Assembly: GCA_001872575.1 (NCBI GenBank) | Contig: MNWP01000030.1 | Coordinates: 10,780-74,779, forward strand | Source of the DNA: Candidatus Peregrinibacteria bacterium CG1_02_54_53 | GTDB lineage: Bacteria > Patescibacteriota > Gracilibacteria > Peribacterales > Peribacteraceae | DNA length: 64,000 nt | Reading direction: 5' to 3' | Notes under the pieces: generated by a model | The model's database searches: none | Told to the model about the DNA's origin: nothing | What the model saw: only the letters and a program-made list of their open reading frames with translations | Shown here: one piece after another, positions 6,136 through 61,388 of the stretch | Numbering within the stretch: the first letter of the stretch is position 1 | Layout: every line of letters starts with the position of its first letter | Position numbers and translations under genes: made by a program

Positions 6136-7941
6136 TCATTCTTCCTGAGCTACGGCGATTTCTTCCGTGCTTCCCTTCAGCACCGCTTTGATCCGTCGAA
6201 CTCCGGCGGACGAACTTTCTTCCTTAAGAATTTTGAGTGAGCCGAGCATGCCGGTGCGGGCGACGTGCGGGCCTCCGCAGATTTCTTTGCTGAAGACGCC
6301 CTTCTTTTCATCCCCGACCACATACACTTTCACCTCTGCTCCGTAGCGCGCATCGAAGACACCGATCGCTCCCTCCGCTTTTGCTCCATCGACGGTGGTG
6401 ACGTGGTAGGCCACGGGCAGATCGGCTGCGATGGCGTCATTGACGATTTTTTCCACCTCCTGCACTTGCTCGGGCGTCATCTTGTCGGGATGACTGAAGT
6501 CGAATCGCAAACGTTCCGCCGTGATGTTTGAGCCCTTCTGGAAGACGTGATCGCCCAGAACTTTGCGCAATGCCGCATTGAGCAGGTGCGTGGCGGTATG
6601 CAGTTTGGTCGTCTGGCTGCCTTGATCCTGCAGTCCGCCCTTGAACTTCGCTTCCGCTCCGGCACGTGAGAGGACCTGATGAGCCTCAAACTTCTTCGCA
6701 AATCCTTTCTCATCCACGGTGAGCCCCTGTTCCTGTGCGAGTTCTTTGGTGAGCTCCAACGGGAACCCGTACGTGTCGTAGAGGTGGAAAACCGTTGTTC
6801 CGTCCATTTGCTTGCCGGCCTTCGCCGCGGCACGCTCGAACTGTTTCATCCCTTCTTTAAGGGTTTTACCGAACTGTTGTTCTTCGCGCTTCAGTGCCTC
6901 GATGATCGCTTGTCGTCGCTCCTGCAGGAAAGGGTAGGTCTGTCCGTACTGTTCGATCACGGCTTCGGCAATGGCAGGGGTCAATGTGCCGTCATGTTCG
7001 ATTTTGAGTTGTCGCGCAGAGCGAATGGCGCGACGAATGAGACGGCGCAGGATGTAGCCCTGATCAACATTGGAGGGAGTGATGCCATCGGCGATGATGA
7101 ATGTCGCCGCCTTAAGGTGATCAACGATGATGCGCAGATGCCGCTCATCCCTATGGTCGGCCATTTCCATGACACGATCGAGTATCGGTTTCATGCGGTC
7201 CGTCTCGTACACATTGTCCTTTCCCTGTAAGACAGCCGCAACGCGCTCCAAGCCCATTCCCGTATCCACATTCTGCTGCTTCAAGGGCTCGAAGGTGCCA
7301 TCCGCCGTCTTGTTGTACTGCATGAAAACGTCGTTCCAGATTTCCAGCCACTCGTCTTCGTGCGAGGCGGGATTGCCTTGCGGCTTGCCATTCCCAACCC
7401 AGTAGAACATCTCGGTATCGGGTCCGCACGGGCCGGTTTGGCCGGCGGGGCCCCACCAGTTCTTCGACTTGGGCAAAAATCCGATGCGCTCGCGGGGAAT
7501 TCCCGCTTTCTCCCAGATTGCGGCTGATTCTTCATCCTTCGGAGCATCCTTGTCCCCTTCGAAGCACGTGACGGCCAGCATGTCGACGGGAATCTGCAGC
7601 ACCTCGGTGAGAAAGCGGAAGCTCATCGTGATTGCTCCTTCCTTGAAGTAATCACCCAGACTCCAGTTGCCCAACATCTCGAAGAACGTGAGGTGCGAAG
7701 CATCACCCACTTCATCGATATCCTGCGTGCGGATGCAGCGTTGCACATCGGTGAGCCGCTTGCCGGCAGGATGCGTTTCGCCCAGCAGATAGGGCACGAG
7801 CGGATGCATGCCCGCCGTGGTGAAAAGGACGGTGGGATCGTTTTCGGGGATCAGTGACGCCCCGGGGATCACGGCGTGATCCTCTTTCTTAAAGAAGTCT
7901 AAGTATGCCTTTCGAATATCGTCAGTGCTCACAGGAGACAT
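6136..7941 (-). CDS. alaS: Alanyl-tRNA synthetase, short form (catalytic + tRNA-recognition + editing domains, no C-Ala domain)
   Basis: N-terminal 'IRKAYLDFFKKEDHAVIPGASLIPENDPTVLFTTAGMHPLVPYL', 'FFEMLGNWSLGDYFK' and 'GPCGPDTEMFYW' mark the catalytic domain. The editing-domain motifs 'HTATHLLNAAL' and 'CGGPHV' are present. The protein is 601 aa, against ~870 aa for typical bacterial AlaRS. Confidence 0.9.
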   Translation of the reverse strand: MSPVSTDDIRKAYLDFFKKEDHAVIPGASLIPENDPTVLFTTAGMHPLVPYLLGETHPAGKRLTDVQRCIRTQDIDEVGDASHLTFFEMLGNWSLGDYFKEGAITMSFRFLTEVLQIPVDMLAVTCFEGDKDAPKDEESAAIWEKAGIPRERIGFLPKSKNWWGPAGQTGPCGPDTEMFYWVGNGKPQGNPASHEDEWLEIWNDVFMQYNKTADGTFEPLKQQNVDTGMGLERVAAVLQGKDNVYETDRMKPILDRVMEMADHRDERHLRIIVDHLKAATFIIADGITPSNVDQGYILRRLIRRAIRSARQLKIEHDGTLTPAIAEAVIEQYGQTYPFLQERRQAIIEALKREEQQFGKTLKEGMKQFERAAAKAGKQMDGTTVFHLYDTYGFPLELTKELAQEQGLTVDEKGFAKKFEAHQVLSRAGAEAKFKGGLQDQGSQTTKLHTATHLLNAALRKVLGDHVFQKGSNITAERLRFDFSHPDKMTPEQVQEVEKIVNDAIAADLPVAYHVTTVDGAKAEGAIGVFDARYGAEVKVYVVGDEKKGVFSKEICGGPHVARTGMLGSLKILKEESSSAGVRRIKAVLKGSTEEIAVAQEE

Positions 7942-10373: not shown

Positions 10374-11903
10374 TTATCCTAAACTGCAGCGAATCGTTCC
10401 GGCTTCCACAATATCCCGCTCTATGGCTTCGGGATCGGGAGCACCGTGCAACCGCTGGAAAATGGTGGAGGTGATGTTACGATGGATGATATGGTGCGGC
10501 TTTTCGGGGCCGAGGGTGACACCCAGAATTTCCTCAATGGCGGTGACATCCGTTTTCACTTCTCTGAATGCTTCAGAATCGCGTGCGAGCAGATCAAGAT
10601 TCTCGCGATTGAGGAATTTTCCTGCGTGTTGAAGGTCGGCACGCAACGCGGGGTAGTGCCGCTCGAGCAGCGGGAGCAGGTTTTTCTCTTTCGCTGCCTT
10701 GAGACCACGGCCGGTTGCGATGAGTTCCGGCGGTACGCCGAGAGAGTAGAACGCGCAGGTGAAACCGATGGCGCGGGGCAGCTTGACCGCGCCGATGCCG
10801 CGACTGTAGCCGAAGAGTCCGATGTGCAGCAGGCGCTCGCGGCGAGGAGGAATGAAACGGGCCACCTGATTGATGAGCGGCGCCATCGCTTCGATGGCGG
10901 GCTTCCAGCAGGTGACGAAAAGATCGGCCAGCTCGCGCAGCTTCTGCAGATCGGCGGAGGAAATGCGTTGCACGGAGCGCCGCGGGGCTTCGTCACGGAT
11001 TTCGGTAAGTGCCCGGCGAACGTCTTCGAGTCGGTAATCGTACCGGAAGGCGGATTGGATGGAGTACGTGCGCGTGCCCGCATACTGATCCAGAAATGTC
11101 TTGGTGTAGGTGGGGTTCACGCTGCCGCGAAAGGGGAGCGATCCGGTGCCGAGGATAGGATGCACGGCGAATCCCATGCGCTCGGCAAGCGTATCGGCGG
11201 CGCTCAGCGCCGCGCGCACGGCCAGCACGGCCGGCACGAGACCCGAGTTCATGGCCGGATCCGAACGTGCGAGAAAGATTCGCTGGCCGCGCTCACGCAG
11301 GTTTTTCCCTTCCGAAATGAGTTGCTGCCAGTACGGCGCCAGAATTTTCTCGATGCCGAAGAGGGAATCAATATCCTCAACGAGCGGGGTTACGAACGTG
11401 CGGTCGTAGAGATGGTGTTCATCTTCGCGTTTCTGATGAAAGACCGAGCGGTGTTCATCGGCCGTCTCGCGAAACGCGCGCAGAGCCTCAATGGGCTGTT
11501 CGGCCGATGTGGTGAGCGGCAGGAACATTTCGGTCACCGGTGGACGGGGCAGGCCGATTTCCTTGGCGAGGTCTCCAAGCGAGAGAATGTTCATGAATGC
11601 GCGTGCGGCACGGTGCGTTCTGCCGCTGTCCCATGCGGGAATGCGGTATGTGAGGTGCACCTCTTCGCCAAGCGGTTTTTTGTGAAAGAACTCCTGCGCG
11701 CGCGAGAAGAGTTTTTCACCCACGGCCTCATCCACATACTTGCCTTCCCAATCCCACATGTACTCGTCAATGGGCAGCTCCTGAAAGAGCAGGAGCAATT
11801 CATCAATTTCGTCCTGCGTGGGAATGAAGGCATCCTGACGCCACCACGGTACTGATGCGTTGTCCGGGTGTTGCGTGGCCATGGTGACGGGCGGCCAAAC
11901 CAT
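10374..11903 (-). CDS. ppcA: Archaeal-type phosphoenolpyruvate carboxylase
   Basis: The N-terminal 'MATQHPDNASVPWW' is the hallmark TQHPDN of the ~500-aa archaeal-type PEPC family. The length is 509 aa. The start may be the ATG at 11882. Confidence 0.75.
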   Translation of the reverse strand: MVWPPVTMATQHPDNASVPWWRQDAFIPTQDEIDELLLLFQELPIDEYMWDWEGKYVDEAVGEKLFSRAQEFFHKKPLGEEVHLTYRIPAWDSGRTHRAARAFMNILSLGDLAKEIGLPRPPVTEMFLPLTTSAEQPIEALRAFRETADEHRSVFHQKREDEHHLYDRTFVTPLVEDIDSLFGIEKILAPYWQQLISEGKNLRERGQRIFLARSDPAMNSGLVPAVLAVRAALSAADTLAERMGFAVHPILGTGSLPFRGSVNPTYTKTFLDQYAGTRTYSIQSAFRYDYRLEDVRRALTEIRDEAPRRSVQRISSADLQKLRELADLFVTCWKPAIEAMAPLINQVARFIPPRRERLLHIGLFGYSRGIGAVKLPRAIGFTCAFYSLGVPPELIATGRGLKAAKEKNLLPLLERHYPALRADLQHAGKFLNRENLDLLARDSEAFREVKTDVTAIEEILGVTLGPEKPHHIIHRNITSTIFQRLHGAPDPEAIERDIVEAGTIRCSLG

Positions 11904-19972: not shown

Positions 19973-20366
19973 TGGTGGAGATGCCGGGAATCGAACCCGG
20001 GTCCAACGTGTGGCGCAGCTGCTTGTACTGTCGTGCTCTTCTCGTACTCGCAGCCCTTCAGAGAAGAGCAAAGAAAGAGTGCGAGGGATGATGCCTGGTT
20101 GACCGCATCACCGCGACATCAGACGGTGACACTGCCTCGCTGATTACGCCCCATCTCCTTAGCGAGAATCCAGAGTGAGACGTGTTCGCATAGAGCGAAC
20201 CTAGGCGACTGCAAGGGCGGGCGCGAAATTCGCGAACGCCTTCTTGAAGACCGCCGGTACATCTGCAGTGGCAGATATTGTTTGCAACAGTGGGTGCGGG
20301 AACCGTTGCCATCCCGAACAGAAGCGAAACTTCACCAGTATCACGCTGTCGAAACCTGTCATCCCC
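19973..20366 (-). ncRNA. ssrA: tmRNA (transfer-messenger RNA)
   Basis: The 5' end is GGGGAUGACAGGUUUCGACAGCG. The 3' end is GGACCCGGGUUCGAUUCCCGGCAUCUCCACCA. The acceptor stem pairs and includes G3.U70. The internal tag frame ends ...ADVPAVFKKAFANFAPALAVA-UAG, with the stop at 20201-20203. The length is 394 nt. Confidence 0.9.
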
Positions 20367-20945: not shown

Positions 20946-21563
20946 CTACGCCTTCTTCATTGCCCGCACCGTCCACAACATCTTCGATAATTCATCACGG
21001 GTGATGGGGCCATTCAGATCGGCATCAGCCGAAAGTGCACCACCGGCAACGAGGGCTTTGACGTAGTGAGCGGACCACCATTCATTTGGATCCGTGGTAT
21101 CCGTAGCCAATTGGAAAGCCTTAGCCAGCGCCTTGGCGGCTTCGGCACGTGTGACGGGGGCGTTCGGACGGAACGATCCGTCGGTGTAGCCGCGCATGAG
21201 GCCTGCACGCATGGCTGTGCAAAGGTCGATGCCGTACGTGGCATTCTTGGGCACATCACGGGCGAGCAGGGAGTAGTCGGATTCTGAGAGCTTAGGGAAG
21301 CAGCGCTCTGAGGGCTTGTAGAGCCGACGCACGATGGCTGCCACAAAAGTGGAACGTTTGATGGTTTCACCACCGGTCCACGTGTAGGCGATATTTTCGA
21401 CGGCGGGCAGGGGCGGCGGCTGAGCTGTAGCCACAGGTTCTTCCTCTACGAAGAGGGTGGGAACGGGCGGCGGCAGCATAATGTCTTCAGGAAAGTACGC
21501 AACTGCCGCATTGGGCGCGAACAGCGCGAGCGAGAGAAGGATAGAGAGAGAACGGGTAAACAT
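20946..21563 (-). CDS. SLH-domain envelope protein
   Basis: It has a signal peptide (MFTRSLSILLSLALFAPNAAVA). The SLH motifs are 'GYTDGSFRPNAPVTRAEAAKALAKAF' and 'ITRDELSKMLW'. Confidence 0.75.
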   Translation of the reverse strand: MFTRSLSILLSLALFAPNAAVAYFPEDIMLPPPVPTLFVEEEPVATAQPPPLPAVENIAYTWTGGETIKRSTFVAAIVRRLYKPSERCFPKLSESDYSLLARDVPKNATYGIDLCTAMRAGLMRGYTDGSFRPNAPVTRAEAAKALAKAFQLATDTTDPNEWWSAHYVKALVAGGALSADADLNGPITRDELSKMLWTVRAMKKA

Positions 21564-21640
21564 TGAAAAGGCGGGGAAGGAGAGGGATTGTGAACTACCC
21601 TTGTCCTCTGTGCAAGGCATTGAACACGCATCGTGCTCAC

Positions 21641-22840
21641 TTAGTCGTCAAGTACCTGCAGTTTGCTTAACATGCGCATATATGCCGTTTCAGGGTTATG
21701 CAGCTCACTTCCACAATGCAGCGTAAAACGTATGAAATGGTGCAGTGAGACGACAAAGGCGCTTCGGGCCGTGCACGATGTGGTTTCTTCGTAGAGGATG
21801 GTACGGATTGTTCCGACCGTTTCATCGGAGAGAATGAAGACATTTGACGCTTCTTGCAGTTCTGCAATGGCGTCGTGCACTTCACTTAAAGGAAAACCGG
21901 TGAGCGAGAAATCCGTCTCGATGCAGGCATTCCAGCCCCAACATTCCTTTTGGGGGCCGATGTAGAGCTTCCAGAGTGAGCGCAATTTCGGAAAAATCGT
22001 TCCGTCGTACGTTCCGCGCGTCACGAGATGCGGCTTGGGCCATGAATTGGGATACGCAAGCGAGTATCCGAGATCTTCATTGGAGGCATCGGCCCACGTG
22101 ACGGGATTCGCCACTTCCACTTCGTCGAGGGCGATGCGCTTTTCCGGCAGTTCTTCGGATGGAAGTTTCAGAAGACGGGCAACCATCTCGGCCATTTCTC
22201 CGCGCGTAAGCGTATGTGCGTAGTCCTGCGCCGTCGGGGGGATCGCTTTGGCAACGTCGAGATAATGGACATACGGCTTGTACCACTCCGCGCCCAACTG
22301 ATCCAAATCCGGAATCTTCACGGGGGCGAGCTTAAAAGCAATGGCGAGGATTTTGGATGCTTCAGCCAGTGAAATAGGCCGCTCGGGGCGGAACGTGCCG
22401 TCACCGTAGCCCGAGATGAATTGTTGTGACCACGCCACACAGACTGACGGTGCGAACCACGCGTCAGACGGCACATCCGACAGTTGCATGCCGAGGCCGA
22501 ACTTCTGCAGTGATTCCTCGTCTTCAAGACAACCGTCGATGAGTGTTTGCGGTGCAAGAGCATGCACGATCATCTTCACGAATTCGGCTCGGGTCACGGA
22601 TGACTCGGGCCAGAACACCCGGTATTCCCCGGGCACGACGAATCCCTGCACGATGTCACGCTGCCTGAGAAGCTCAATCGATTCGGCATACGGATGCGTG
22701 TCGGGCACGTCGTGAAAGAACATTGCCGCGGCAGCCCAAGGCAGAAATCCGAAAGCGATACATGTGAGCGAGACGATCCAACGAGTCAGGTGCATGGAGG
22801 CCATTATAGCATTGGCGATTTGGATATTGTCGATTGGCAA
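21641..22840 (-). CDS. SLH-domain envelope protein with a C-terminal unknown domain
   Basis: It has three SLH-like repeats: 'FHDVPDTHPYAESIELL...VTRAEFVKMIVHAL', 'SGYGDGTFRPERPISLAEASKILAIAF' and 'TLTRGEMAEMVARLL'. The start is uncertain (Met at 22804 or 22795). Confidence 0.75.
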   Translation of the reverse strand: MPIDNIQIANAIMASMHLTRWIVSLTCIAFGFLPWAAAAMFFHDVPDTHPYAESIELLRQRDIVQGFVVPGEYRVFWPESSVTRAEFVKMIVHALAPQTLIDGCLEDEESLQKFGLGMQLSDVPSDAWFAPSVCVAWSQQFISGYGDGTFRPERPISLAEASKILAIAFKLAPVKIPDLDQLGAEWYKPYVHYLDVAKAIPPTAQDYAHTLTRGEMAEMVARLLKLPSEELPEKRIALDEVEVANPVTWADASNEDLGYSLAYPNSWPKPHLVTRGTYDGTIFPKLRSLWKLYIGPQKECWGWNACIETDFSLTGFPLSEVHDAIAELQEASNVFILSDETVGTIRTILYEETTSCTARSAFVVSLHHFIRFTLHCGSELHNPETAYMRMLSKLQVLDD

Positions 22841-23537: not shown

Positions 23538-26500
23538 CTACAGCTTTGTCAGTCTCACCGTCACCTGCACGCCATCCACCTCCATCTGTTGCAATGGTCC
23601 GTCATTCTTTTGCAGTATGGCGTTCGTTTCTTGCGCGATGATTTTGCCGTGTTCCTTCAGTACATCCGGCAGCCCGTCGATCTGCAACGCAATGCGATCG
23701 GTGAAGTGCAGTCCGGCCTCTTTGCGCAGCTTTTGCACGATGCGGATGAGGTCGCGTACGAGACCTTCACGCTTGAGCGTATCGGTCACCGTCGTATCCA
23801 TACTGACGATCACGCCGTGATCCGCCGCCATATCCGCACCCTCCGCGCCGCGATAGGTGATAGCGACTTCGTCGGGAGCCAGAACTTCATCGAGAATCAG
23901 GATGGCGCCGTCTTCGCGTACAGTGAAGTCGCCTGACTTTCCCGCTTTGATGATTTCCTGCACGCGTGCGCCCAGACGCGGACCGACTTTGCGGGCATCC
24001 ACCTGTGCAATGCGGGTGGCGAGTGCACCGGGATCATCGGTGAATTCCAAATCTTTCACGTTGAGTTCGCTTGCGAGGAGCTGGCGGTCTTCTGCCGTGA
24101 GGGCAATCTTGGCGAGTGCGGGGGGTAATGCGACGACCGCTTTTTGCAGGGGTTGGCGCACTTTGATCTTCTTGCCCGCGCGAATGCCGTGGCCCAACGA
24201 AACCAACAGCCGCAGAAGGCGGTGACGGTCAATGAGCGAGTGCTCCTGTTTCGTGAGTGCGCGGACATCGGGCCAATCGGTGAGGTGCACTGAACCGTGT
24301 TCCTCGGGAACGAGATTCACGTAGATGGCATCGGTGATGAACGGACAGAAGGGAGCGAGTGTCTGACAGAGTGTGAGAAGCACGTCGTACAGGGTCGCAA
24401 GTGCATCCAACCGCTCTCCCTCGTGTTCTTCGAGTTCGGCAGAGGGGCTGAGATCTTCCTCATCGATGCCGCCTTTTCCGGCGAAGCGCCGACGCGATAG
24501 GCGCACGTACCAGTTGGTGAGCGCATCGATCGTGTCGTGCATTTCGCTGCACGCGGCCGAGAGATCGTAGCGGCCGAGCTGCAGTGTCATACGGTTCACG
24601 AGGTCCTGCACTTCTGCGCGGATGTACTGATCGAGCGGATGGCCGGAGTGTCGGCGGCTTGTCACGGGCTCAAACTTCGCGGCATTGGCGTATGTCGTGA
24701 AGAAACTGTAGACGTTCCACAGCGGCAGCAGTACCGAACGTACGGTCTCTTCCACCAATTTTTCCGAGAAGCGCAGATCTTCACCCTTTACAGCCGGCGA
24801 GCTCATGAGCGTGAAGCGCACGGCATCCGCTCCGTGACGATTGACGACCTCGGTCGGCTCGGGGTAGTTCTTGAGACGCTTGCTCATCTTCTTGCCGTCT
24901 TCCGCCAGCACGATGCCGTTGACGATGCAGTTCATGAAAGCGGGTTTCTTGAAGAGTGCCGACGAGAGGATCATCAGGGTGTAGAACCATCCGCGTGTCT
25001 GATCCATTCCCTCGGCGATGAAGTCGGCCGGGAATCCGACGGGAAACCTCTTCTTATTGTGAGGAAAAGCGAAGGGGAAGTGGCTTTGTGCGTAGGGCAT
25101 GGAGCCCGACTCAAACCAGCAATCCAGCACTTCGGGAATACGCTGCATGGGCGCCGACAGTGTGAGCTCTATCGCTTCGGCATTCTTGGGTTCGATGGTA
25201 GCTGCTTCCTCCAGTGTGAGATTGTCAACGAGGGCCTGTATGCATTTCATCGGGCCGCCGTGGCAGGCCACGAGTACGTGCTTGCCTGGAAATTCCGTGC
25301 GGATGCGCTGCAGAGCCTGTGTAATACGCTGGAGGAAGGTTTCGAAACTTTCCCCTCCCGGAGGAGTATGAGGAGAGAGTCCCGGACTGACCATGTTGCC
25401 CCGTGGTAGTTTCATCACATAGTCTTCTCCATGTTTACCGGTCCAATCGCCCGTGTCACGTTCACGCAACTCTTTCAACTGCGCAACATGCGGGATTTTC
25501 AATTCCTTGCTGAGGATTTCGGCGGTCTCAACGGCGCGTTTCAAGTCTGAAGAAATGATAACGTCGAACTTTCGCTTTTTCAGCTTCTTTGCAAGGTCCT
25601 GCACTTGTGCACGTCCCGTCTCGTTGAGGAGGGTATCGATGTTGCCGCCGTTCACGAGATGCTGCTTGTTGTAATCGGTCTGACCGTGGCGCACAACGGT
25701 GAGGAGGACATCGGGCGATGAGCGATAGGCGATTTCGTATGCTTCGGCATTCGATGAGAGTGATCGGGTCTCTTCGGGCGGAGCATGTTCAACGATGGAT
25801 TGCATGGCACGAAGAACACCGCCGTGTCCAACGAGAAGAATATGTTTGCCAACAAACATCCCGAGCAGTTCCCCGAGAGCCCGCTCTGTTCGTACAAGGA
25901 ATGCGGCCCGTGTTTCTCCGTTTGGGGGATTTCCCGGATGGAATGAAATCGACACACCTTGAGGCATTGAGAATTCCCGTCGGATTTCATCGGTGGAGCG
26001 ACCGCTCCAGTCTCCCTGGTTTCTCTCGCGAAGAATTTCCAACGATGCACTATGGGGGATTCCAAGTTCCTGAGACAGGATCTGTGCCGTTTCCACAGTG
26101 CGCGAGAGATCCGAAGAGACGATGGCGTCGAATTTTTTCCGCTTCAATTTTTTTGCAAGATCATGTGCCTGCTTTCGTCCGGTCTCATTCAAAGGGATAT
26201 CCCCGTTTCCCCCCTGGAGTTTTCTTTCTTTATTCCAATCCGTTTCGCCATGTCTCACAAATGTCAAATGCACGCTTTTTTCTTTGCTCGGCGATGCCCC
26301 CCATGTCACGTCATCCACGATGTGCTTGTGCAGGTCGAGCTGGCCTTGCGTACGGTGATCCCAAAAGAACGAGACCGGTTCGGCGTACCGGGGATAGGGC
26401 TGGTGGCTGAGCTTAAGCGGATCTTCTTTGTTGAAGAAGTGGCGGATGTTCTGCACCGGATCGGCGTGCGTGACGATGACTATGTGGTTGCCGCGGTGTA

Positions 26501-28460
26501 AGGGGAGCACATCGAAGAGGAATGCGCTGATACGTTCCTGAACCGCACTCCATGTTTCCATGCCCGGGAAGTGGTAGATGCTCTCGGGCGATCCGGTTTC
26601 GAGCTTGTGCGCACGCCGTGCTTTGACGAAGGTGAGATCCGAATAATCCACGGTCTTGCCTTCGTATTCTCCAAAACTGACTTCGCGCAGTCGCTCATCC
26701 TCAATGATAGGCGCGTCCGTCGTCTTGGCGATGATCGCTGCTGTTTCACGCGTACGCGCCAAGGGTGAACAGTAGATGGCGCTTATTTCTCCTTTCTTGA
26801 GAAAACTTGCAGCCTCCTTCGCCTGCGCGCCCCCGGTGTCTGTAAGTGAGGTGCCCGGCGGTGTGCCCTGATAGATGGGGATCAGGTTGCCCTCACTCTC
26901 GCCGTGACGCAGCACCGTCACCTTGGTGAACCGAATCTTCTGCTGTGCCATAAGCTCGTCGCGGCCGGTGATCACCGTCAGATCGCCTGTGTCCTTGTTG
27001 CGCCAGATGGGCAGAGGTGTTCCCCAGTAGCGGTTACGGCTGATCGCCCAGTCACGCGCCCCCTCCAGCCACTTGCCGAAACGGCCGTCACGCAGATGCG
27101 CGGGTACCCACTGAGTCTGTGCATTGGCTTTGAGCAGGTCGTCTTTGATCTTCGAAACATTCACGAACCATGAGCTTGTGGCGTAGTTGAGAAGTGGTGA
27201 ATCGCAGCGCCAGCAGTGCGGATAACTGTGGCGGTACGTCTCTTCGGCGAAGAGTTTACCGTGCTCCTTGAGCCACTTGGCCACCAGACGATCGGTCTTG
27301 CCCGGGTCATCAATCGGCTTCACTTCCATTCCGGCAAAGTCCTTCACTTCGGCGATAAATTTTCCCTCCATGGTGACGTGCTGCAGAATCGGCACCTTCT
27401 CCTTTAAGCCCACGCGGTAGTCGTCTTCGCCGAAACCCGGAGCAATGTGCACGATGCCCGTGCCCTCATTCAAAGCAACAAAATTACCCACTACAACTCG
27501 GAAGGCTTTTTTATATTCCTTTTGATTTTCGAAATATGGAAATAGTGGCTTAAAATCTTTTCCGACTAATTCTTTTCCTTTGAAAGGTTCACCATCTTGC
27601 ATGAAAGTTCTTTCGTCTGTCGTGCTACCATCGACTGGCTCGAGAACTTTTCGAAGATATGAGAGTGAAGCAATATAAGTCGATTTATCCTCTCCTTTTT
27701 TCATGAAACGAACATATTCGGCTTTGTCATTTACGGCGAGAAAGAAGTTCCCCGGCAGCGTCCACGGTGTTGTCGTCCAGGCGAGGAGGAATGTGCCCGG
27801 TTCGTCTTTAAGTTCGAACTTCACTGTTACCGAGAGGTCGGTTACGTCTTTGTAACCCTGTGTCACTTCGAAATTCGAGAGGGGAGTCACGCACCTCGGA
27901 CAAATGTGCATGGGCTTATGCCCTTCATACACAAGCCCCTTCTTATGGAGCTCACTGAACACCCACCAGATCGATTCCATGTACTCCGGATCCATGGTGC
28001 GGTAATCCCAGTCCATATCGACCCAGCGACCCATTCGCTCCACGACGGTGCGCCATTCTTTGGTGTAGCGCTGCACCGATCCGCAGCAGAGTGCATTGAA
28101 CGCGCCGACGCCCATTTCCTCAATCTGCTGGTGACTGGTGATGTTGTGTTCCTTCTCGATCAGGTTCTCGACCGGCAGCCCGTGGCAGTCCCAGCCGAAT
28201 CGGCGCTCCACACACTTTCCGCGCATCGCCTGGTAGCGGGGGATGACATCCTTGATCGTGCCGGCGAGCAGATGCCCGTAGTGGGGCAGCCCTGTGGCGA
28301 ACGGAGGTCCGTCGTAGAACGAGAACAACGCATCCGCATCATCCTTCTCTCCCTTACGCTGCTTCACGCTGCGCTTGAAGACATCTTCTTCCTGCCAGTA
28401 GCGCAAGATGCCCTCCTCGAGTTCCGGCAGCCTCTGCTTTGGATCAACAGGATCAAACAT
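23538..28460 (-). CDS. ileS: Isoleucyl-tRNA synthetase (type 2) with three inserted histidine-phosphatase (PGAM-like) domains
   Basis: IleRS motifs are present: 'GLPHYGHLLAG', 'WTTTPWTLPGN', 'WAISRNRYWGTPLPIW', 'DCWFESGSMPY' and 'KMSKRLKNYP'. Three RHG...H phosphatase modules sit between ISRNRYWG and DCWFESGS, at roughly nt 26352-26933, 25764-26273 and 25155-25709. I trimmed the start to the ATG at 28460 (MFDPVDPKQRLPELE...). Confidence 0.9.
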   Translation of the reverse strand: MFDPVDPKQRLPELEEGILRYWQEEDVFKRSVKQRKGEKDDADALFSFYDGPPFATGLPHYGHLLAGTIKDVIPRYQAMRGKCVERRFGWDCHGLPVENLIEKEHNITSHQQIEEMGVGAFNALCCGSVQRYTKEWRTVVERMGRWVDMDWDYRTMDPEYMESIWWVFSELHKKGLVYEGHKPMHICPRCVTPLSNFEVTQGYKDVTDLSVTVKFELKDEPGTFLLAWTTTPWTLPGNFFLAVNDKAEYVRFMKKGEDKSTYIASLSYLRKVLEPVDGSTTDERTFMQDGEPFKGKELVGKDFKPLFPYFENQKEYKKAFRVVVGNFVALNEGTGIVHIAPGFGEDDYRVGLKEKVPILQHVTMEGKFIAEVKDFAGMEVKPIDDPGKTDRLVAKWLKEHGKLFAEETYRHSYPHCWRCDSPLLNYATSSWFVNVSKIKDDLLKANAQTQWVPAHLRDGRFGKWLEGARDWAISRNRYWGTPLPIWRNKDTGDLTVITGRDELMAQQKIRFTKVTVLRHGESEGNLIPIYQGTPPGTSLTDTGGAQAKEAASFLKKGEISAIYCSPLARTRETAAIIAKTTDAPIIEDERLREVSFGEYEGKTVDYSDLTFVKARRAHKLETGSPESIYHFPGMETWSAVQERISAFLFDVLPLHRGNHIVIVTHADPVQNIRHFFNKEDPLKLSHQPYPRYAEPVSFFWDHRTQGQLDLHKHIVDDVTWGASPSKEKSVHLTFVRHGETDWNKERKLQGGNGDIPLNETGRKQAHDLAKKLKRKKFDAIVSSDLSRTVETAQILSQELGIPHSASLEILRERNQGDWSGRSTDEIRREFSMPQGVSISFHPGNPPNGETRAAFLVRTERALGELLGMFVGKHILLVGHGGVLRAMQSIVEHAPPEETRSLSSNAEAYEIAYRSSPDVLLTVVRHGQTDYNKQHLVNGGNIDTLLNETGRAQVQDLAKKLKKRKFDVIISSDLKRAVETAEILSKELKIPHVAQLKELRERDTGDWTGKHGEDYVMKLPRGNMVSPGLSPHTPPGGESFETFLQRITQALQRIRTEFPGKHVLVACHGGPMKCIQALVDNLTLEEAATIEPKNAEAIELTLSAPMQRIPEVLDCWFESGSMPYAQSHFPFAFPHNKKRFPVGFPADFIAEGMDQTRGWFYTLMILSSALFKKPAFMNCIVNGIVLAEDGKKMSKRLKNYPEPTEVVNRHGADAVRFTLMSSPAVKGEDLRFSEKLVEETVRSVLLPLWNVYSFFTTYANAAKFEPVTSRRHSGHPLDQYIRAEVQDLVNRMTLQLGRYDLSAACSEMHDTIDALTNWYVRLSRRRFAGKGGIDEEDLSPSAELEEHEGERLDALATLYDVLLTLCQTLAPFCPFITDAIYVNLVPEEHGSVHLTDWPDVRALTKQEHSLIDRHRLLRLLVSLGHGIRAGKKIKVRQPLQKAVVALPPALAKIALTAEDRQLLASELNVKDLEFTDDPGALATRIAQVDARKVGPRLGARVQEIIKAGKSGDFTVREDGAILILDEVLAPDEVAITYRGAEGADMAADHGVIVSMDTTVTDTLKREGLVRDLIRIVQKLRKEAGLHFTDRIALQIDGLPDVLKEHGKIIAQETNAILQKNDGPLQQMEVDGVQVTVRLTKL

Positions 28461-28556
28461 GGTACACGGGTCTTGCCCTGAGTCCCGCGTATGCGGGACG
28501 AAGGGTCGAACATGTGCAGAGACTAGCATATTCGTCATTCCCTGTGTTGCGTTCCG

Positions 28557-31791: not shown

Positions 31792-34563
31792 TCAGTGTCG
31801 ACGCCGGTTTATTGTGTTGATGATCAGCGGCAGCGCCGCGCCTGCCGCCACAATGGCACCGGCGAGAAATGTGGCTTGGGTGATTTGATTCATTAATACG
31901 GCTTGCCCGACGATCGTCGTGAATATCAGCAGAAAAGAGAATCGCATCACGAAATCAATTTCTCGATGCGAAAGAAGATAGTAATAAATATAGTAGGGAA
32001 GACCGGCGAAGAACACGCTGAAGAGAATCATGCGCGCCATAACGGGAGCGCCATACTGCAGAAGATGCGCCGAAGGCAGAAGAGGCAGAGCTAAAAGTGC
32101 GCAGAAAAACGAGAGGATGAAAAAATACTGAGCAACGCGCACGTCCACTTGCTCCAGTCTCTTGTAGCGCTCACTGGCGACAGAGAACACGGTAAATGCC
32201 GCAATGGCGATAAAGGTGAAGAGCATGCTTCTGAACGTCCAAGAGGGCGTCGAAATGATCAGCAGAACGATGCCGACAACAAAGCAGGTCCATGCAGCGA
32301 GCATGGTCTTCCAGCGTTTGCGGTTGACGATGGTCGTAAGCAGAAAGCCCGAAACTGTCATGGGAATGGTGTAGTGGGAGGGGAGCGTTTGCTCCAGCGA
32401 AAGATACGTAAACAGCGCCACCAGAAAGAGTGCTCCGACCGAGAGCCAGAGTGTTTTGCTGCGCAGCGGGAGGGCAACAAAGCGCAATGGGGAATGCAGT
32501 CGAATCCAGAGCAACATGACTGCGCTTAAGCCGAGCAGTGAAAAGAAGCGAACGATCGTGAGGTCCAGTGCCGAGATTTGATGTGTTTTGAGAAGCAGAT
32601 GGGCGATGATCGGGTCGAAGCCCCAAAGAGTGAAGATGAGAATCACGGTCAATACCTGTCTGAGCATCGAATGTGTCAGAAGAACACGCACATTGTTTGC
32701 TCCCACTGCTCGCAGTTCGGTCGCAATGGATTGCCGTTCTTCGGAGGTAAGATCGAGCCGCAAAACAATTTTTGTCTGCCGATGTCCGCTCAGCAGAATC
32801 TGCATGTCACCCAGAGAGACATCGTACTTTTCTTCCAAAAACAACATGTGACTGAGCAGCTCGTGTAATGAGGCGCTCGACAGAGTGAAGCGTACGGTGC
32901 AGTATTTCTTTTCGGGCGTGAGATTTTTTCCGGATTTCACCGGCTGAAAGATGGCAGCAATGGCAACCGATGCCTGCAAGTGACCGTCGGCAATCGCAAT
33001 GAACGCTTCATCGAGAGACGTGTATCCGAGTGAGTGAATGCCCTGCATCAAGCTCTCTTCGGTGAATTCCTTCAGATACCCACGCGCTTGTTTGATCATG
33101 GCGTCCTGAAGCACCCTTTTGCCGCTTTCAATTTTCTGCTGGCGCGAAGCGGATCCGAGCAGGGAACGAATGGCGGCGATAGCCACGCCCGTGTGCACCC
33201 ATTCGAGCCAATCACGTGTCACCGTATGGCGGCTGGCAAGCTCAAGCGAGAGGGCATCACCGTCGTTGAGCGGAGTGAAGAAGGGAGCGCCCTTTCCGTT
33301 GATTTTGATGAGCTTTGTTTTGAGCGCTTTCTCTTTGAAGAGATAGAAGGCGCCATCGAGTACCGTCGCTCCGGTAGGAAGCTGGATCGTCGTGTCATCC
33401 GGTCCGTAGATGAAGATCGACTTGCCGAGGATATCGTTCTGCAAGCTGTCCCAGAACTCCTGACTCTTGTCCGCGGTGTCTTTCGAGAGCGGTGCAATGC
33501 GCTCGGTCCAGGGCAGGTAGTTCATGATACCGATAGCCTTGTGATCGAAGCAGAGAGTCGATACGCCCTTTCTGGCGTACTTTTGCATTTCCTTTGTGCG
33601 GATTTTGCAGCGCACACGCGTCCCTTTTTCAAGAATGATCGTCGTATGTAATCCGCGATATCCGTTGATTGCCGGTGCGTTGATGAAATCCTTGAACGAG
33701 AGAATTTCGTGCTGCCATTTCTGATGCAGTATGCCCAACGTTTCGTAGCACTGAGAGATGTCCTTGCAGAGGAAGGCACATGTGATATCCGATCGCACAC
33801 TGTGCGTATCGGTATCAGAGGCGAGACGTGCGCGGAGGTGATCCCATGTTTTCTGTTCAACGCGTACGGTGACCTCTTCAGGCAATGGCTCAGGTTCGCC
33901 GTAAAGCGACTCACGGAGCGCATCTACAAGCTTGGCCGCCTGTCGTTCATTGGCATCGCGAAGTTGTGTAAGTTTTGTGAAAGTTCCAGGATCCAGCACG
34001 GCCAGGCACAACCCTTCAAGTTCATCGCTGAAGTCGTGCATGCTCATTCGTTCCGCAATCTTGACGTAGATATCCATCGTCTCCTGCGCGAATGATTGCT
34101 GCCGTTCCTTTGCGAGGTATTGCACCGTACGCATGTTGTGCAAGCGGTCGGCCAACTTGATCACCATGATGCGAATATCCTCTTGCATCAAAATCACCAT
34201 TTTTCTCAGAGATTCGATCTCTTCGTCGAGCGTGGGGTGCTCGCGCACGGATTGGTCGTCGAGTTTCGTCATCCCCTCGATCAGCGCTGCAACAGTCGGG
34301 CTGAAGCGTTTTTCGATGTAGGCGAGGGTGATGTCGGTATCTTCCAAAACATCGTGGAGCAGTGCGGCAACCAGAGAATCGGCCCCGGCCCCCATGTCGG
34401 CAAGAATGAGGGTAACGGCAATGGGATGGCTGGAATACGGCTCACCTGATTTGCGCTTTTGCCCTTCATGGGCGCTGATGCAGAGCTCGAACGCACGATG
34501 CACGCGCTCACGCTCGGCAGCAGAGAGATGCCGGAGGGAGGATTCAAATTCCTTCCACTGCAT
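31792..34563 (-). CDS. RelA/SpoT homologue (HD hydrolase + degenerate synthetase + TGS + ACT-like) fused to a C-terminal EamA/DMT-like multi-TM domain
   Basis: The HD domain has 'HPIAVTLILADMG...ALLHDVLEDT...LADRLHNMRT'. The RelA_SpoT core has 'CYETLGILHQKWQ...KDFINAPAINGYRGLHTTI...KIRTKEMQ'. The TGS domain has 'IFIYGPDDTTIQLPTGATVLD'. The last ~285 aa (nt ~31795-32660) form about 9-10 hydrophobic helices. Confidence 0.8.
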   Translation of the reverse strand: MQWKEFESSLRHLSAAERERVHRAFELCISAHEGQKRKSGEPYSSHPIAVTLILADMGAGADSLVAALLHDVLEDTDITLAYIEKRFSPTVAALIEGMTKLDDQSVREHPTLDEEIESLRKMVILMQEDIRIMVIKLADRLHNMRTVQYLAKERQQSFAQETMDIYVKIAERMSMHDFSDELEGLCLAVLDPGTFTKLTQLRDANERQAAKLVDALRESLYGEPEPLPEEVTVRVEQKTWDHLRARLASDTDTHSVRSDITCAFLCKDISQCYETLGILHQKWQHEILSFKDFINAPAINGYRGLHTTIILEKGTRVRCKIRTKEMQKYARKGVSTLCFDHKAIGIMNYLPWTERIAPLSKDTADKSQEFWDSLQNDILGKSIFIYGPDDTTIQLPTGATVLDGAFYLFKEKALKTKLIKINGKGAPFFTPLNDGDALSLELASRHTVTRDWLEWVHTGVAIAAIRSLLGSASRQQKIESGKRVLQDAMIKQARGYLKEFTEESLMQGIHSLGYTSLDEAFIAIADGHLQASVAIAAIFQPVKSGKNLTPEKKYCTVRFTLSSASLHELLSHMLFLEEKYDVSLGDMQILLSGHRQTKIVLRLDLTSEERQSIATELRAVGANNVRVLLTHSMLRQVLTVILIFTLWGFDPIIAHLLLKTHQISALDLTIVRFFSLLGLSAVMLLWIRLHSPLRFVALPLRSKTLWLSVGALFLVALFTYLSLEQTLPSHYTIPMTVSGFLLTTIVNRKRWKTMLAAWTCFVVGIVLLIISTPSWTFRSMLFTFIAIAAFTVFSVASERYKRLEQVDVRVAQYFFILSFFCALLALPLLPSAHLLQYGAPVMARMILFSVFFAGLPYYIYYYLLSHREIDFVMRFSFLLIFTTIVGQAVLMNQITQATFLAGAIVAAGAALPLIINTINRRRH

Positions 34564-40627: not shown

Positions 40628-41989
40628 ATGCGCCCTTCTCTTCAACTGTCTCTTCTGGCCACAGGAACACTGTTGGCGTTCTCGTCGTCCATCTTTGCGG
40701 CAGAGGCGATTTTTCCCGATGTGCCGGTAGGCCATCGCTTCGAAGAACCCATCAATGTGCTTGTCAATGCAGGTGTACTGACAGGCAATCCAGATGGGTA
40801 CTTCTATCCTGATCGGCAGGTGAATCGTGCCGAAATGCTCAAAATGCTCTACAAGGCGACGGGCAGGTTGCCCGATGTGAACAGTCGCGCCTGCTTCAAA
40901 GATGTGGAGCGCTACAGTTGGTACGAGACCTACGTGTGCGATGGGGCGGCGCAACGCTTTGTCGATGGTTACTCCGACGGCACGTTCCGTCCGGCCAACC
41001 CCGTTAATCGCGTGGAGGCACTCAAGATGATCACGCAGGTTATCGGCATTCCCGTTGAGAATATCGGAGAGGAGGCGCGTCAGGTGGTGAATTTCGTGGA
41101 TGTTTCCGTTTCGGCTTGGTACACAAAGTACCTCTACGCGGCATATGTGAAGGGCATTCTGCCGATTGCAGGCCAGAACGCGTCACGTTTCTATCCCGAT
41201 TGGCCGCTGCTGAGAGGCGAGGCCGCAGCAATGATCTTCAATGCACTGAATGCCGATCTCATCGAGCGTCGTCAAGAGAGCAGTGCGTCTTCGGTCTCAG
41301 CAATCCGCAGCAGCAGTGCGACGTCGACGCAGTCTTCTTCATCGTCGAGTGACGCATCGAGCTACGATGTGCCGTTTCCGTTCGAGTCGGCCGGTAAATT
41401 TTCTCAGCGCAAGTCCGTCACCTACCGTTTCACGCTTGATCATACGGCGGTTGTTTCGACGGTTGCCAAATTACAGTCGGGTCAGCCGGGCAGCCTGACG
41501 TGCAGACTTTACCTCATGGCCGAATCCGGATTTTCGTACGAGTACTTCATGGGGTTCCAGGAGGGATCGACCTGCACGCTCAAGACGGCTCTGAAGCCCG
41601 GGAGTTACCAGCTGCAGCTGCAGCCGACCATTGCCGATACGACGTTTAATGTGAAGTCCGTCACCACGACGACCGGGGACGGAAGCGACGGTTTTGCCGA
41701 GGCCCAGACATTGCCGTTCAATCTGGCGCGCACGGGAACACTTGCTCCGGGTGACTATAAGGATTGGTACAAGTTCGTCGTTCCTGCCGCGAAGAGTATG
41801 CAAATTTCCGTTTCAGACTCTACACAGATCACCTGCCTGGTCTATCCCATGGAAGATGTCGATCTTTTCGGCTTCTCGGGTCCCGCGTGTAATCAGCACT
41901 TCGAGTATCAACCGGGGACGTACATCATTGCCGTTGGGCGCATGTTCCCGTCTGATGCGCGGCAGACGTACACGATTCTGGCCCAGTAA
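40628..41989 (+). CDS. SLH-domain envelope protein with C-terminal beta domains (pre-peptidase-C-terminal-like 'DWYKF')
   Basis: It has a signal peptide and three SLH repeats (FPDVPVGHRFEEPINVL..., FKDVERYSWYETYV...GYSDGTFRPANPVNRVEALKMI, VDVSVSAWYTKYL...). A Ser-rich linker follows, then 'GDYKDWYKFVV'. Confidence 0.75.
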   Translation: MRPSLQLSLLATGTLLAFSSSIFAAEAIFPDVPVGHRFEEPINVLVNAGVLTGNPDGYFYPDRQVNRAEMLKMLYKATGRLPDVNSRACFKDVERYSWYETYVCDGAAQRFVDGYSDGTFRPANPVNRVEALKMITQVIGIPVENIGEEARQVVNFVDVSVSAWYTKYLYAAYVKGILPIAGQNASRFYPDWPLLRGEAAAMIFNALNADLIERRQESSASSVSAIRSSSATSTQSSSSSSDASSYDVPFPFESAGKFSQRKSVTYRFTLDHTAVVSTVAKLQSGQPGSLTCRLYLMAESGFSYEYFMGFQEGSTCTLKTALKPGSYQLQLQPTIADTTFNVKSVTTTTGDGSDGFAEAQTLPFNLARTGTLAPGDYKDWYKFVVPAAKSMQISVSDSTQITCLVYPMEDVDLFGFSGPACNQHFEYQPGTYIIAVGRMFPSDARQTYTILAQ

Positions 41990-44257: not shown

Positions 44258-44334
44258 CGCCCGCGTAGCTCAGCTGAATAGAGCGCCTGGCTTCGGACCA
44301 GGAGGTCGTGGGTTTGAATCCTGCCGCGGGCACC
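44258..44334 (+). tRNA. tRNA-Arg(UCG)
   Basis: The sequence folds as GCCCGCG-UA-GCUC-AGCUGAAUA-GAGC-G-CCUGG-CUUCGGA-CCAGG-AGGUC-GUGGG-UUUGAAU-CCUGC-CGCGGGC-A-CCA. All stems pair, with two G.U pairs in the T stem. CCA is encoded. Confidence 0.85.
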
Positions 44335-44490
44335 ATTCGACTCGCCCCGCATCCGCGGGGCTCGCTCATGGCAAGCCACTCAACGCCATGATCGTTCCCA
44401 CGGAGGATCGGCGTGCACGTGCGGTATACAGGGGAGCGGGAATGGTCTTTCGGGCTGCATACTGGATACGGATCCCTGTATACTGGTCAC

Positions 44491-60764: not shown

Positions 60765-61388
60765 CTACTCTGCCGCGTTGCCTCCAGAGCGTCGTCGTAT
60801 CAATTCTTCCGCGACAGCGGAGAATCGAATTTCCTGCTGTTTAAGAAGAACTAGCAAATGATAAAGCAGATCAGCTGCTTCCTCCACTGTTCTCTGTTCC
60901 CCCTCTTCCCTCGCAGCTCTCACTACCTCTTCCGCCTCTTCGAATACTTTTGCACCACATGCCTCAATACCACCATCGAGGAGTTTCCTGGTGTATGAAT
61001 TACTGTCACCGCTCGATGCCCTCTTTGCAATTGTACGGGTGAGGATGCCAATGGTTTCCACTGCCAATTCTTCATTACCAAAGCAGGATTGCGTACCAGT
61101 GTGACATGTCGGCCCCTTGGGTCTCGCTCGAATCAAGAGGCAATCTTGGTCACAGTCGGGAGTACAGGAGACGAATTGGAGCGCGTTACCTGAAGTTTCT
61201 CCTTTCTGCCATAGTCGTTCCTTTGAACGGCTGTAGAACGTCACAAGCCTTGTTTTCAACGTTTCTCCGAGTGCTTCTCGGTTCATATAGCCAAGCATGA
61301 GAACCTGTGACGTATCGCAGTCCTGTACAATAACGGGAATAAGGCCATCGGGATTTTTTTGCCAGTCAAGTGTGGAAATATCCATCAT
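60765..61388 (-). CDS. hisIE: Bifunctional phosphoribosyl-AMP cyclohydrolase / phosphoribosyl-ATP pyrophosphatase
   Basis: The HisI part has 'LIPVIVQDCDTSQVLMLGYMNREAL...FYSRSKERLWQKGETSGN...DCDQDCLL...CHTGTQSCF'. The HisE part has 'SYTRKLLDGG...KVFEEAEEV...EEAADLLYHLLVLL'. Confidence 0.9.
   Translation of the reverse strand: MMDISTLDWQKNPDGLIPVIVQDCDTSQVLMLGYMNREALGETLKTRLVTFYSRSKERLWQKGETSGNALQFVSCTPDCDQDCLLIRARPKGPTCHTGTQSCFGNEELAVETIGILTRTIAKRASSGDSNSYTRKLLDGGIEACGAKVFEEAEEVVRAAREEGEQRTVEEAADLLYHLLVLLKQQEIRFSAVAEELIRRRSGGNAAE

Follow-up and report, generated by a model that had tools for sequence, protein, structure and literature searches.

What is a complete phosphatase doing within the catalytic region of an essential aminoacyl-tRNA synthetase (aaRS), and why would it be found there three times? 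This question is raised by the ileS gene of Candidatus Peregrinibacteria bacterium CG1_02_54_53, which encodes an isoleucyl-tRNA synthetase (IleRS) and lies on the minus strand of the stretch analysed here, i.e. 64,000 nucleotides of contig MNWP01000030.1 (assembly GCA_001872575.1, positions 10,780 to 74,779). This whole stretch is called the window, and all coordinates below refer to it. Judged from its sequence, the ileS product is probably the working type-2 IleRS of the organism, built in a domain-in-domain manner, with three histidine phosphatase modules nested in its CP3 subdomain. We define site A as the insertion point before a conserved element of CP3 beginning with DLH, and site B as the point after this element. 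The features of the gene are as follows.

23538..28460, minus strand: ileS, type-2 IleRS with nested phosphatase modules, 1640 codons plus stop
26946..28460, minus strand: N-terminal part of the IleRS, comprising the first Rossmann half, CP core, CP1 editing domain, CP2, CP2-CP3 linker and the start of CP3
28272-28286, minus strand: HIGH motif, PHYGH
27021-27044, minus strand: ISRNRYWG, in the CP2-CP3 linker WAISRNRYWG
26355-26933, minus strand: module 1 (M1), site A, His_Phos_1, with the nucleophile His codon at 26904-26906 (RHGESEGN)
26301-26336, minus strand: conserved IleRS CP3 element DLHKHIVDDVTW, which divides site A from site B
25719-26282, minus strand: module 2 (M2), site B, diverged copy, His_Phos_1, with the His codon at 26250-26252 (RHGETDWN)
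25155-25718, minus strand: module 3 (M3), site B, His_Phos_1, with the His codon at 25686-25688 (RHGQTDYN)
24876..25154, minus strand: second Rossmann half, with DCWFESGS at 25101-25124 and the KMSKR loop at 24876-24890
23541..24875, minus strand: stem-contact region, anticodon-binding domain and type-2 C-terminal domain (by Pfam, Anticodon_1 at residues 1303-1467 and DUF5915 at residues 1487-1665)

The N-terminal part was delimited by Pfam, structure alignments and motif positions, and the domain names follow PMC7955072 and PMC7191050. The open reading frame (ORF) listing gave a single unbroken frame at 23538..28538 (minus strand), with 1666 aa counted from the first ATG. Because the homologues begin at 'MFDPVDPKQ' in their consensus and the NCBI record has 1640 aa, the start was placed at nt 28460, and the in-frame ATG upstream at 28538 is probably not the start. 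The protein scored 817.4 bits against the NCBIfam equivalog TIGR00392 (ileS), above the cutoff of 621.4, and Pfam identified tRNA-synt_1 in split form (438 bits) along with Anticodon_1 and DUF5915. The landmark motifs were located at residues 85 (PHYGH), 499 (ISRNRYWG), 735 (DLHKHIVDDVTW), 1139 (DCWFESGS) and 1217 (KMSKR), and both the HIGH motif and KMSKR were invariant or nearly so across 70 homologues. The solved type-2 IleRSs (human, yeast, Candida, Priestia IleRS2 and Thermus) aligned to residues 34-531 and 1130-1620. In an AlphaFold2 model of residues 27-1226, with a mean predicted local distance difference test score (pLDDT) of 80.5 and a predicted template modelling score (pTM) of 0.78, the host retained the IleRS fold. 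IleRS2 structures were its best matches in Foldseek, and the editing domain matched 1wk8/1ue0 with a template modelling (TM) score of 0.89. An earlier interpretation of the window made from the letters alone, referred to here as the sequence-only reading, had described one ORF of about 1640 codons at 23538-28460 that encodes a complete type-2 IleRS with these five motifs. The start codon agrees with the homologues and the NCBI record, every motif is present, and the TIGR00392 score, the domains and the structural matches bear out the nature of the host.

The position of the insert can be read from studied enzymes. In yeast IleRS, CP2 spans residues 420-458, CP3 spans 459-526 and the second Rossmann half starts from 527, and the CP2-CP3 linker (453-ARDWNVSRNRYWG-465) forms part of the wall of the pocket in which the tRNA CCA end and reveromycin A bind (PMC7955072). 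The Candida IleRS is subdivided in the same way as that of yeast, and the Thermus CP3 bears a zinc motif (PMC7191050). In the window protein, both insertion points lie between SRNRYWG and DCWFESG, and therefore both are within CP3. In the solved type-2 IleRSs, the blocks aligning to 34-531 and 1130-1620 are separated by only about 28 residues. Likewise, the spacing of the landmark motifs is 640 residues here, compared to mostly 63-77 (a few up to 131) in insert-free relatives. These counts agree with the sequence-only reading, which had assumed a few dozen residues in ordinary IleRSs and about 600 extra in this protein. The Cys knuckle that it mentioned in this region corresponds to the CP3 zinc motif, and here a refinement was needed, as many other CPR (candidate phyla radiation) IleRSs keep both CxxC halves, which flank the site-A module. 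The paired CxxC halves were absent from the Peregrinibacteria sequences examined. The G+C content of the insert was similar to that of the remainder of the gene.

What are the inserted domains? Pfam His_Phos_1 (PF00300) matched three stretches with 421 bits in total (E 7e-127; gathering cutoff 21.7), and each of M1, M2 and M3 retains the RHG histidine, the second Arg, the Glu and the distal His. Between M2 and M3, identity is 49% at the protein level and about 52% at the DNA level, and M1 is 32% identical to each of them. The AlphaFold2 models showed the modules as confident alpha/beta domains, as in the histidine phosphatase superfamily; M1 alone reached a pLDDT of 91.6 and a pTM of 0.88. In Foldseek, the best matches of M1 came from the small phosphatase branch, with TM scores of 0.7-0.8 and a root-mean-square deviation (rmsd) of 3-4 Å. 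They included PhoE/YhfR (1ebb/1h2e, TM 0.79-0.81), PspA (TM 0.77-0.79), glucosyl-3-phosphoglycerate phosphatase and the riboflavin-pathway histidine phosphatase 9mmh (TM 0.78), whereas true phosphoglycerate mutases superposed poorly on M1 (rmsd 7-9 Å). The profile scores were in line with this. Against the 2,3-bisphosphoglycerate-dependent phosphoglycerate mutase (dPGM) model TIGR01258, the modules obtained 30-51 bits (cutoff 81.7) and aligned over just the N-terminal 100 residues or so of a family of about 245 aa; against other dPGM models they obtained 27-98 bits (cutoffs 225-421). For CobC alpha-ribazole phosphatase (TIGR03162, cutoff 162.9), the scores of M1, M2 and M3 were 85.9, 124.7 and 119.7 bits, and for PspA-type phosphoserine phosphatase (NF045917, cutoff 350) they were 75-88 bits. 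Because every module fell below every cutoff, identity with a true phosphoglycerate mutase, CobC or PspA was rejected. The modules are phosphatase-type members of the superfamily, of the small branch that resembles PhoE, PspA and CobC, and not mutases. The sequence-only reading had recognised three intact domains, one before and two after the DLHKH element, with M2 and M3 as paralogues and with the RHG histidine, second Arg and distal His kept in every module; Pfam, the coordinates and the identities agree on all of these points. Its term 'PGAM-like' overstated the likeness to mutases.

We then asked how widely the architecture occurs. A search of 5.8 billion clustered proteins, with hits from NCBI, JGI, ENA and Logan assemblies, identified IleRS combined with PF00300 in at least 120 protein clusters, which represent separately assembled Peregrinibacteria. 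Among the hits were the closed genomes of Ca. Peribacter riflensis (1.25 Mb) as well as further contigs 0.7-1.2 Mb in length. The architecture recurs widely and is peculiar neither to this gene nor to the three-module form. Two modules, one A and one B, make up the usual form (115 of 120 clusters); two clusters have A only, and the three with A and two tandem B modules represent the clade of the window protein. M2 and M3 themselves are 49% identical, and the duplication of B is common to three proteins that are about 73-74% identical to that of the window, so that it is old and stable. In the module tree, M3 is the closest to the canonical B module of the two-module relatives and M2 is the more diverged copy. 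The third module of the window protein is an old tandem duplicate of module B, and the ancestral-looking forms have one or two modules.

For a wider search, only the N-terminal half of the IleRS was used as the query, so that the ranking was independent of the insert. Among 1.84 billion representative proteins, we considered the best 150, of which 70 carried His_Phos modules, at four different sites. Site A (CP3, before DLH) accounted for 45 clear cases, and 9 more are A or B; the other sites are B (CP3, after DLH), C (from DCWFESG to KMSKS) and D (about 70-80 residues past KMSKS). The combinations A+B, A+D, B+C and C+D were seen. We also scanned GTDB with one genome per species, in which the taxon labels of metagenome-assembled genomes are those of the depositors. 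At least 40 species loci had a site-A module in frame inside ileS, under the labels Saccharibacteria, Minisyncoccia, Paceibacteria/Parcubacteria, Yanofskybacteria, Nomurabacteria, Wolfebacteria and Peregrinibacteria/Peribacterales. M1 is orthologous to this site-A module found across CPR. Insert-free type-2 IleRSs were found in Treponema, Acidimicrobiia, Clostridia, some CPR and archaea, and at 40 insert-free ileS loci there was no free-standing His_Phos gene within about 3 kb of ileS.

The history of the host was examined with a quick neighbour-joining (NJ) distance tree of the insert-masked IleRS core from 121 taxa, which has long branches. The module-bearing enzymes gathered in one large group with scattered insert-free members, and a second group mixed sites B, C and D. 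Module presence required 23 parsimony changes over the 121 taxa. The NJ tree of the modules, built to tell separate insertions from moves within the gene, was star-like and resolved only the Peregrinibacteria A and B clades, along with loose clusters by site. These results suggest mostly vertical inheritance with repeated gain, relocation, duplication and loss, in an arrangement that is old across CPR.

The modules are maintained by selection and are not junk. Across 84 modules from all sites, the RHG Arg and the nucleophile His were each kept in 83, the Glu in 79, and the second Arg and the distal His in all 84. The catalytic residues were also invariant in 20 diverse site-A sequences that share just 31-41% identity. 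In 107 two-module Peregrinibacteria proteins, the mean pairwise identity was 61-68% in the IleRS core regions, and module A was similar with 62%, whereas module B had 43%. Conservation of at least 95% was seen in a quarter of the columns of module A in these proteins, and many of its positions are invariant in a lineage-specific manner; M1 is the best-conserved guest. The reading frame was open in 38 of the 40 GTDB loci with a site-A module. The near-invariant catalytic residues and the core-like conservation of module A also support the sequence-only reading in its view that the insert is not decaying junk. Frame breaks were noted in the ileS of the GTDB loci L005 and L042.

Histidine phosphatases are not the only domains that are nested in these enzymes. 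Related CPR IleRSs nest GNAT acetyltransferases in frame at several sites, at times alongside His_Phos. One has a NUDIX hydrolase, which matches the PADLOC candidate PDC-S07, and in another an alpha/beta serine hydrolase accompanies a site-D phosphatase. In the relative P0183, a site-A phosphatase is accompanied by a nested P-loop kinase-like domain (AAA_18/AAA_33). A DUF559 endonuclease-like guest and IS200-type Y1 transposase domains were also found in related CPR IleRSs. The guest-bearing relatives, all from outside the window, are P0123, P0124, P0132, P0139, P0183, P0206, P0207, P0214, P0217, P0220, P0223, P0225, P0236 and P0263, and ileS in CPR relatives is thus a hotspot of in-frame nesting. 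The variety of the guests cuts both ways. Most of them modify small molecules or nucleotides and could act on ligands of IleRS. On the other hand, the transposase-like and endonuclease-like guests suggest that the IleRS loops in related CPR are simply permissive.

How might a phosphatase serve the synthetase? Each module is predicted to hydrolyse a phosphomonoester through a phospho-histidine intermediate, and the IleRS part would charge tRNA-Ile as usual, making the protein bifunctional. The phosphatases would be looped out of CP3, which directly follows the CP2-CP3 linker lining the CCA-end pocket. By analogy with known end-healing enzymes, we tentatively favour the possibility that the tethering is functional, with the phosphatase acting on a predicted nucleotide-type substrate at or near the aminoacylation site. 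Its likeliest job would be to strip a 2'/3'-terminal phosphate from tRNA acceptor ends so that they become chargeable, and the same job could cover the product of an opened cyclic phosphate or a pyrophosphate on the tRNA end. Alternatively, it may clear a phosphorylated nucleotide by-product or analogue. The location of sites A and B in CP3, adjoining the linker 'ARDWNVSRNRYWG' of the tRNA-CCA/reveromycin pocket, argues for functional tethering. The pairing of a phosphatase with a kinase-like domain in P0183 is suggestive as well, as it may parallel RNA end-healing. The E. coli CCA-adding enzyme has an HD domain with phosphatase and cyclic-phosphodiesterase activity, which is thought to heal tRNA 3' ends.

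Several observations weigh against a tRNA-directed role of the tethered phosphatase. Because modules are also present at sites C and D, away from CP3, there is no conserved geometry toward the CCA pocket. Because related IleRSs nest unrelated domains, position alone becomes a weaker argument for a tRNA-directed function, and the permissive loops noted above point in the same direction. Close relatives carry between 0 and 3 copies, and modules have often been lost, so that the phosphatase is dispensable for IleRS function. Damaged 3' ends would also affect all tRNAs and not tRNA-Ile alone, and none of M1-M3 reached the cutoff of any functionally defined NCBIfam family. A bolder extension of functional tethering is that the phosphatases, possibly with the NUDIX, GNAT, kinase-like and hydrolase guests, constitute an unrecognised layer of quality control or repair on the enzyme. 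The synthetase would then heal blocked tRNA 3' ends (2'/3'-phosphate, opened cyclic phosphate or toxin-added pyrophosphate), or adenylate-like poisons would be destroyed before charging. We regard this extension as unlikely. If true, it would define a new functional class of aaRS accessory domain, like the CP1 editing domain but distinct from it.

Nearly as likely as functional tethering to the aminoacylation site is the possibility that the modules are passengers. In this case several surface loops of the CPR IleRSs tolerate whole domains, and ordinary housekeeping phosphatases for sugar, amino-acid, cofactor or nucleotide phosphates ride in an essential, constitutive gene, uncoupled from aminoacylation. 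We consider it a serious, if still doubtful, alternative. It would account for the many unrelated guests (GNAT, NUDIX, P-loop kinase-like, alpha/beta hydrolase, DUF559 and IS200 Y1), for the occurrence of His_Phos at four different sites with variable copy number and frequent losses, and for the loose conservation of module B (43%). The generic modules, which have no specific family assignment, and the insert-free loci without a His_Phos gene next to ileS are also consistent with passengers. However, His_Phos is by far the commonest guest (70/150) and occupies four sites, which is beyond a random draw, although one old event inherited vertically explains most of this count. Module A matches the synthetase core in its conservation, with many positions invariant within the lineage, nesting is costly compared to a separate gene or an end-to-end fusion, and the choice of IleRS as the host is left without explanation. 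A benefit closer to the synthetase would be self-protection, in which natural inhibitors, either Ile-AMP mimics or ligands of the IleRS active site, are inactivated on the spot by the nested enzymes. The model for this is the acetyltransferase, peptidase and phosphoramidase defences against aminoacyl-adenylate mimics of the microcin C type. The guests belong to classic resistance families that modify small molecules, their sites cluster round the catalytic domain, and patchy gain and loss fits a conditional benefit; histidine phosphatases such as SixA can also cleave P-N bonds. However, we know of no phosphorylated IleRS inhibitor, the phosphatase modules matched no PADLOC or resistance family, and the idea rests wholly on analogy, so that we regard it as improbable. 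Independently of this, a likeness of the modules to anti-phage defence was looked for with PADLOC and dropped, as there were no matches.

The modules might instead act on protein. Some His_Phos members, such as PGAM5, Sts-1 and SixA, are protein phosphatases, and kinases of the HipA type phosphorylate GltX and TrpS in the ATP-binding loop, which inactivates both. A built-in phosphatase could keep the synthetase active by dephosphorylating IleRS itself, e.g. at a Ser in or near the KMSKR loop phosphorylated by a HipA-like toxin kinase, or by dephosphorylating a partner. All four sites are within about 100 residues of the KMSKS loop in sequence, but the structural neighbours of the modules are small-molecule phosphatases, and we consider this role quite improbable. 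The capture of a glycolytic phosphoglycerate mutase or another specific enzyme (CobC, PspA or the riboflavin-pathway ARPP phosphatase) is less probable again. Some homologues bear the JGI name 'isoleucyl-tRNA synthetase/bisphosphoglycerate-dependent phosphoglycerate mutase', and in the Peribacteria riboflavin pathway the phosphatase step seems to be without an assigned gene, which gives some interest to the Foldseek neighbour 9mmh (TM 0.78). On the other hand, the dPGM, CobC and PspA scores are below their cutoffs, dPGM superposes with an rmsd of 7-9 Å, and 9mmh ranks only 9th and 16th by sequence. The lead toward a riboflavin-pathway phosphatase, which came from 9mmh and from riboflavin genes in the window, was therefore given up, since the sequence likeness was unremarkable and gave no specific support. 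The sequence-only reading had listed a captured metabolic phosphatase among its possible roles, and the profile scores and the poor superposition disfavour its glycolytic-mutase variant. An artefact or a dead insert can practically be discounted, whether as a chimeric assembly, as an intein or intron left unspliced, or as pseudo-domains in decay. As far as sequence data can tell, it is refuted by the at least 120 clusters, the closed genomes, the open frames, the invariant catalytic residues and the matching G+C content. More than 120 independent homologues, closed genomes among them, exclude the chimeric assembly against which the sequence-only reading had advised a check. Pfam detected no intein/Hint or homing-endonuclease domain in the window protein, and the junction sequences of the modules had no Cys/Ser...His-Asn-Cys/Ser/Thr pattern.

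Two further observations concern the host enzyme. The G+C content falls to about 0.45 at window positions 27250-27999 (flanks 0.55-0.60), in the part of ileS encoding the CP1 editing domain, and this stretch coincides with a Lys-rich, poorly conserved segment of lower model confidence. A segment of about 75 residues in other type-2 IleRSs (profile columns 870-943) is missing from the CPR- and DPANN-type IleRSs, whether or not they bear a phosphatase, as seen when the GTDB loci L043-L082 were compared with L003-L042.

The neighbourhood of ileS is syntenic with that of Ca. Peribacter riflensis and contains UvrA, Rel, ileS, a holin-like gene and SLH genes, with a different orientation; nothing in it was suggestive of a functional partner for ileS. 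The RelA/SpoT homologue (31792-34563, minus strand) has 923 aa, compared to 644 aa in its syntenic counterpart in Ca. Peribacter riflensis. Its HD, synthetase and AH/RIS domains were detected, TGS and ACT were not, and about 280 extra residues had no Pfam match. Genes for SLH-domain surface proteins lie at 20946-22840 (minus strand) and at 40628-41989, 44958-47321 and 53844-55223 (plus strand); two SLH genes are directly downstream of ileS, in an arrangement syntenic with Ca. P. riflensis. The window also contains a tmRNA gene (19973-20366, minus strand) with the tag peptide ATADVPAVFKKAFANFAPALAVA and a tRNA-Arg(TCG) gene (44259-44335, plus strand). A short alanyl-tRNA synthetase (6136-7941, minus strand; 601 aa) consists of the catalytic and SAD domains only and has no nested domain. 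A 492-aa protein (61385-62863, minus strand) has two His_biosynth stretches of the HisA/HisF type and looks like a fused or duplicated barrel. An archaeal-type phosphoenolpyruvate carboxylase (PEPcase_2) is encoded at 10374-11903 (minus strand), and a serine recombinase with Resolvase and Recombinase domains (34-1557, plus strand) is situated at the window edge.

The sequence-only reading was not aware of any described aaRS with embedded phosphatases, and our full-text literature searches likewise turned up no publication in which histidine phosphatases are nested in an IleRS or another aaRS. Targeted reading of the Peribacteria genome paper and of the CPR protein-family paper gave no mention of a phosphatase-bearing IleRS either. 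The sequence-only reading had allowed that such enzymes might be a well-annotated common family; they are common, but they are neither well annotated nor described. In NCBI they are named 'class I tRNA ligase family protein' or 'hypothetical protein', and there is no curated model for them, while automatic pipelines flag both parts of these proteins in the JGI double name and in precomputed Pfam matches. This exposes an annotation gap, in which a common CPR enzyme remains poorly named. Few enzymes have been studied as thoroughly as the aaRSs, and their extra domains have repeatedly led to new biology in editing, signalling and resistance. Here, a second and apparently active catalytic domain lies within the core of an essential synthetase in approximately half of the IleRS lineages sampled from CPR. 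If it is coupled to charging, tRNAs or adenylates would be under a new type of surveillance. If it is uncoupled, the enzyme would be a remarkable natural case of tolerance to the insertion of whole enzymes, at several sites and from at least seven domain families, which bears on protein engineering and on the packaging of functions in streamlined genomes.

Compared to known systems, the host is closest to the type-2 IleRSs, i.e. the eukaryote-like, mupirocin-resistant type, with which it shares domains and motifs and which are its best structural matches (Priestia megaterium IleRS2 8C8U, yeast/Candida 7D5C and 6LDK, and Thermus thermophilus 1ILE). However, their CP3 is small (about 60-70 residues; that of Thermus has a zinc knuckle), whereas that of the window protein is interrupted twice by about 600 residues of phosphatase domains. 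The GNAT-containing IleRS of NF040702 ('isoleucine--tRNA ligase, N-acetyltransferase domain-containing') is likewise an IleRS with a whole nested enzyme domain, but the guest family differs: the window protein reached 253.7 bits where the cutoff is 1999, and Pfam detected no GNAT domain in it. The modules most resemble the broad-specificity phosphatase PhoE/YhfR (1H2E/1EBB) and the phosphoserine phosphatase PspA (4IJ5), in structure as well as in sequence, with the same fold, catalytic residues and size (about 190-200 residues). These enzymes are dimeric. In contrast to the modules, they are free-standing, the identity is just 26-28%, and the window modules have conserved motifs of their own lineage. 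The Rv2228c-type RNase H/CobC-like acid phosphatase (PRK07238), the second-best NCBIfam match of each module, also combines a nucleic-acid enzyme with His_Phos, but it is an end-to-end fusion and not a nested one, and the modules scored 87-99 bits against its cutoff of 326. If the phosphatases are functionally tethered as we favour, the protein would follow the same logic as the E. coli CCA-adding enzyme and the end-healing of T4 Pnkp, in which the enzyme's own phosphatase cleans the tRNA 3' end, although the phosphatase folds there (HD and HAD) are unrelated to that of the modules.

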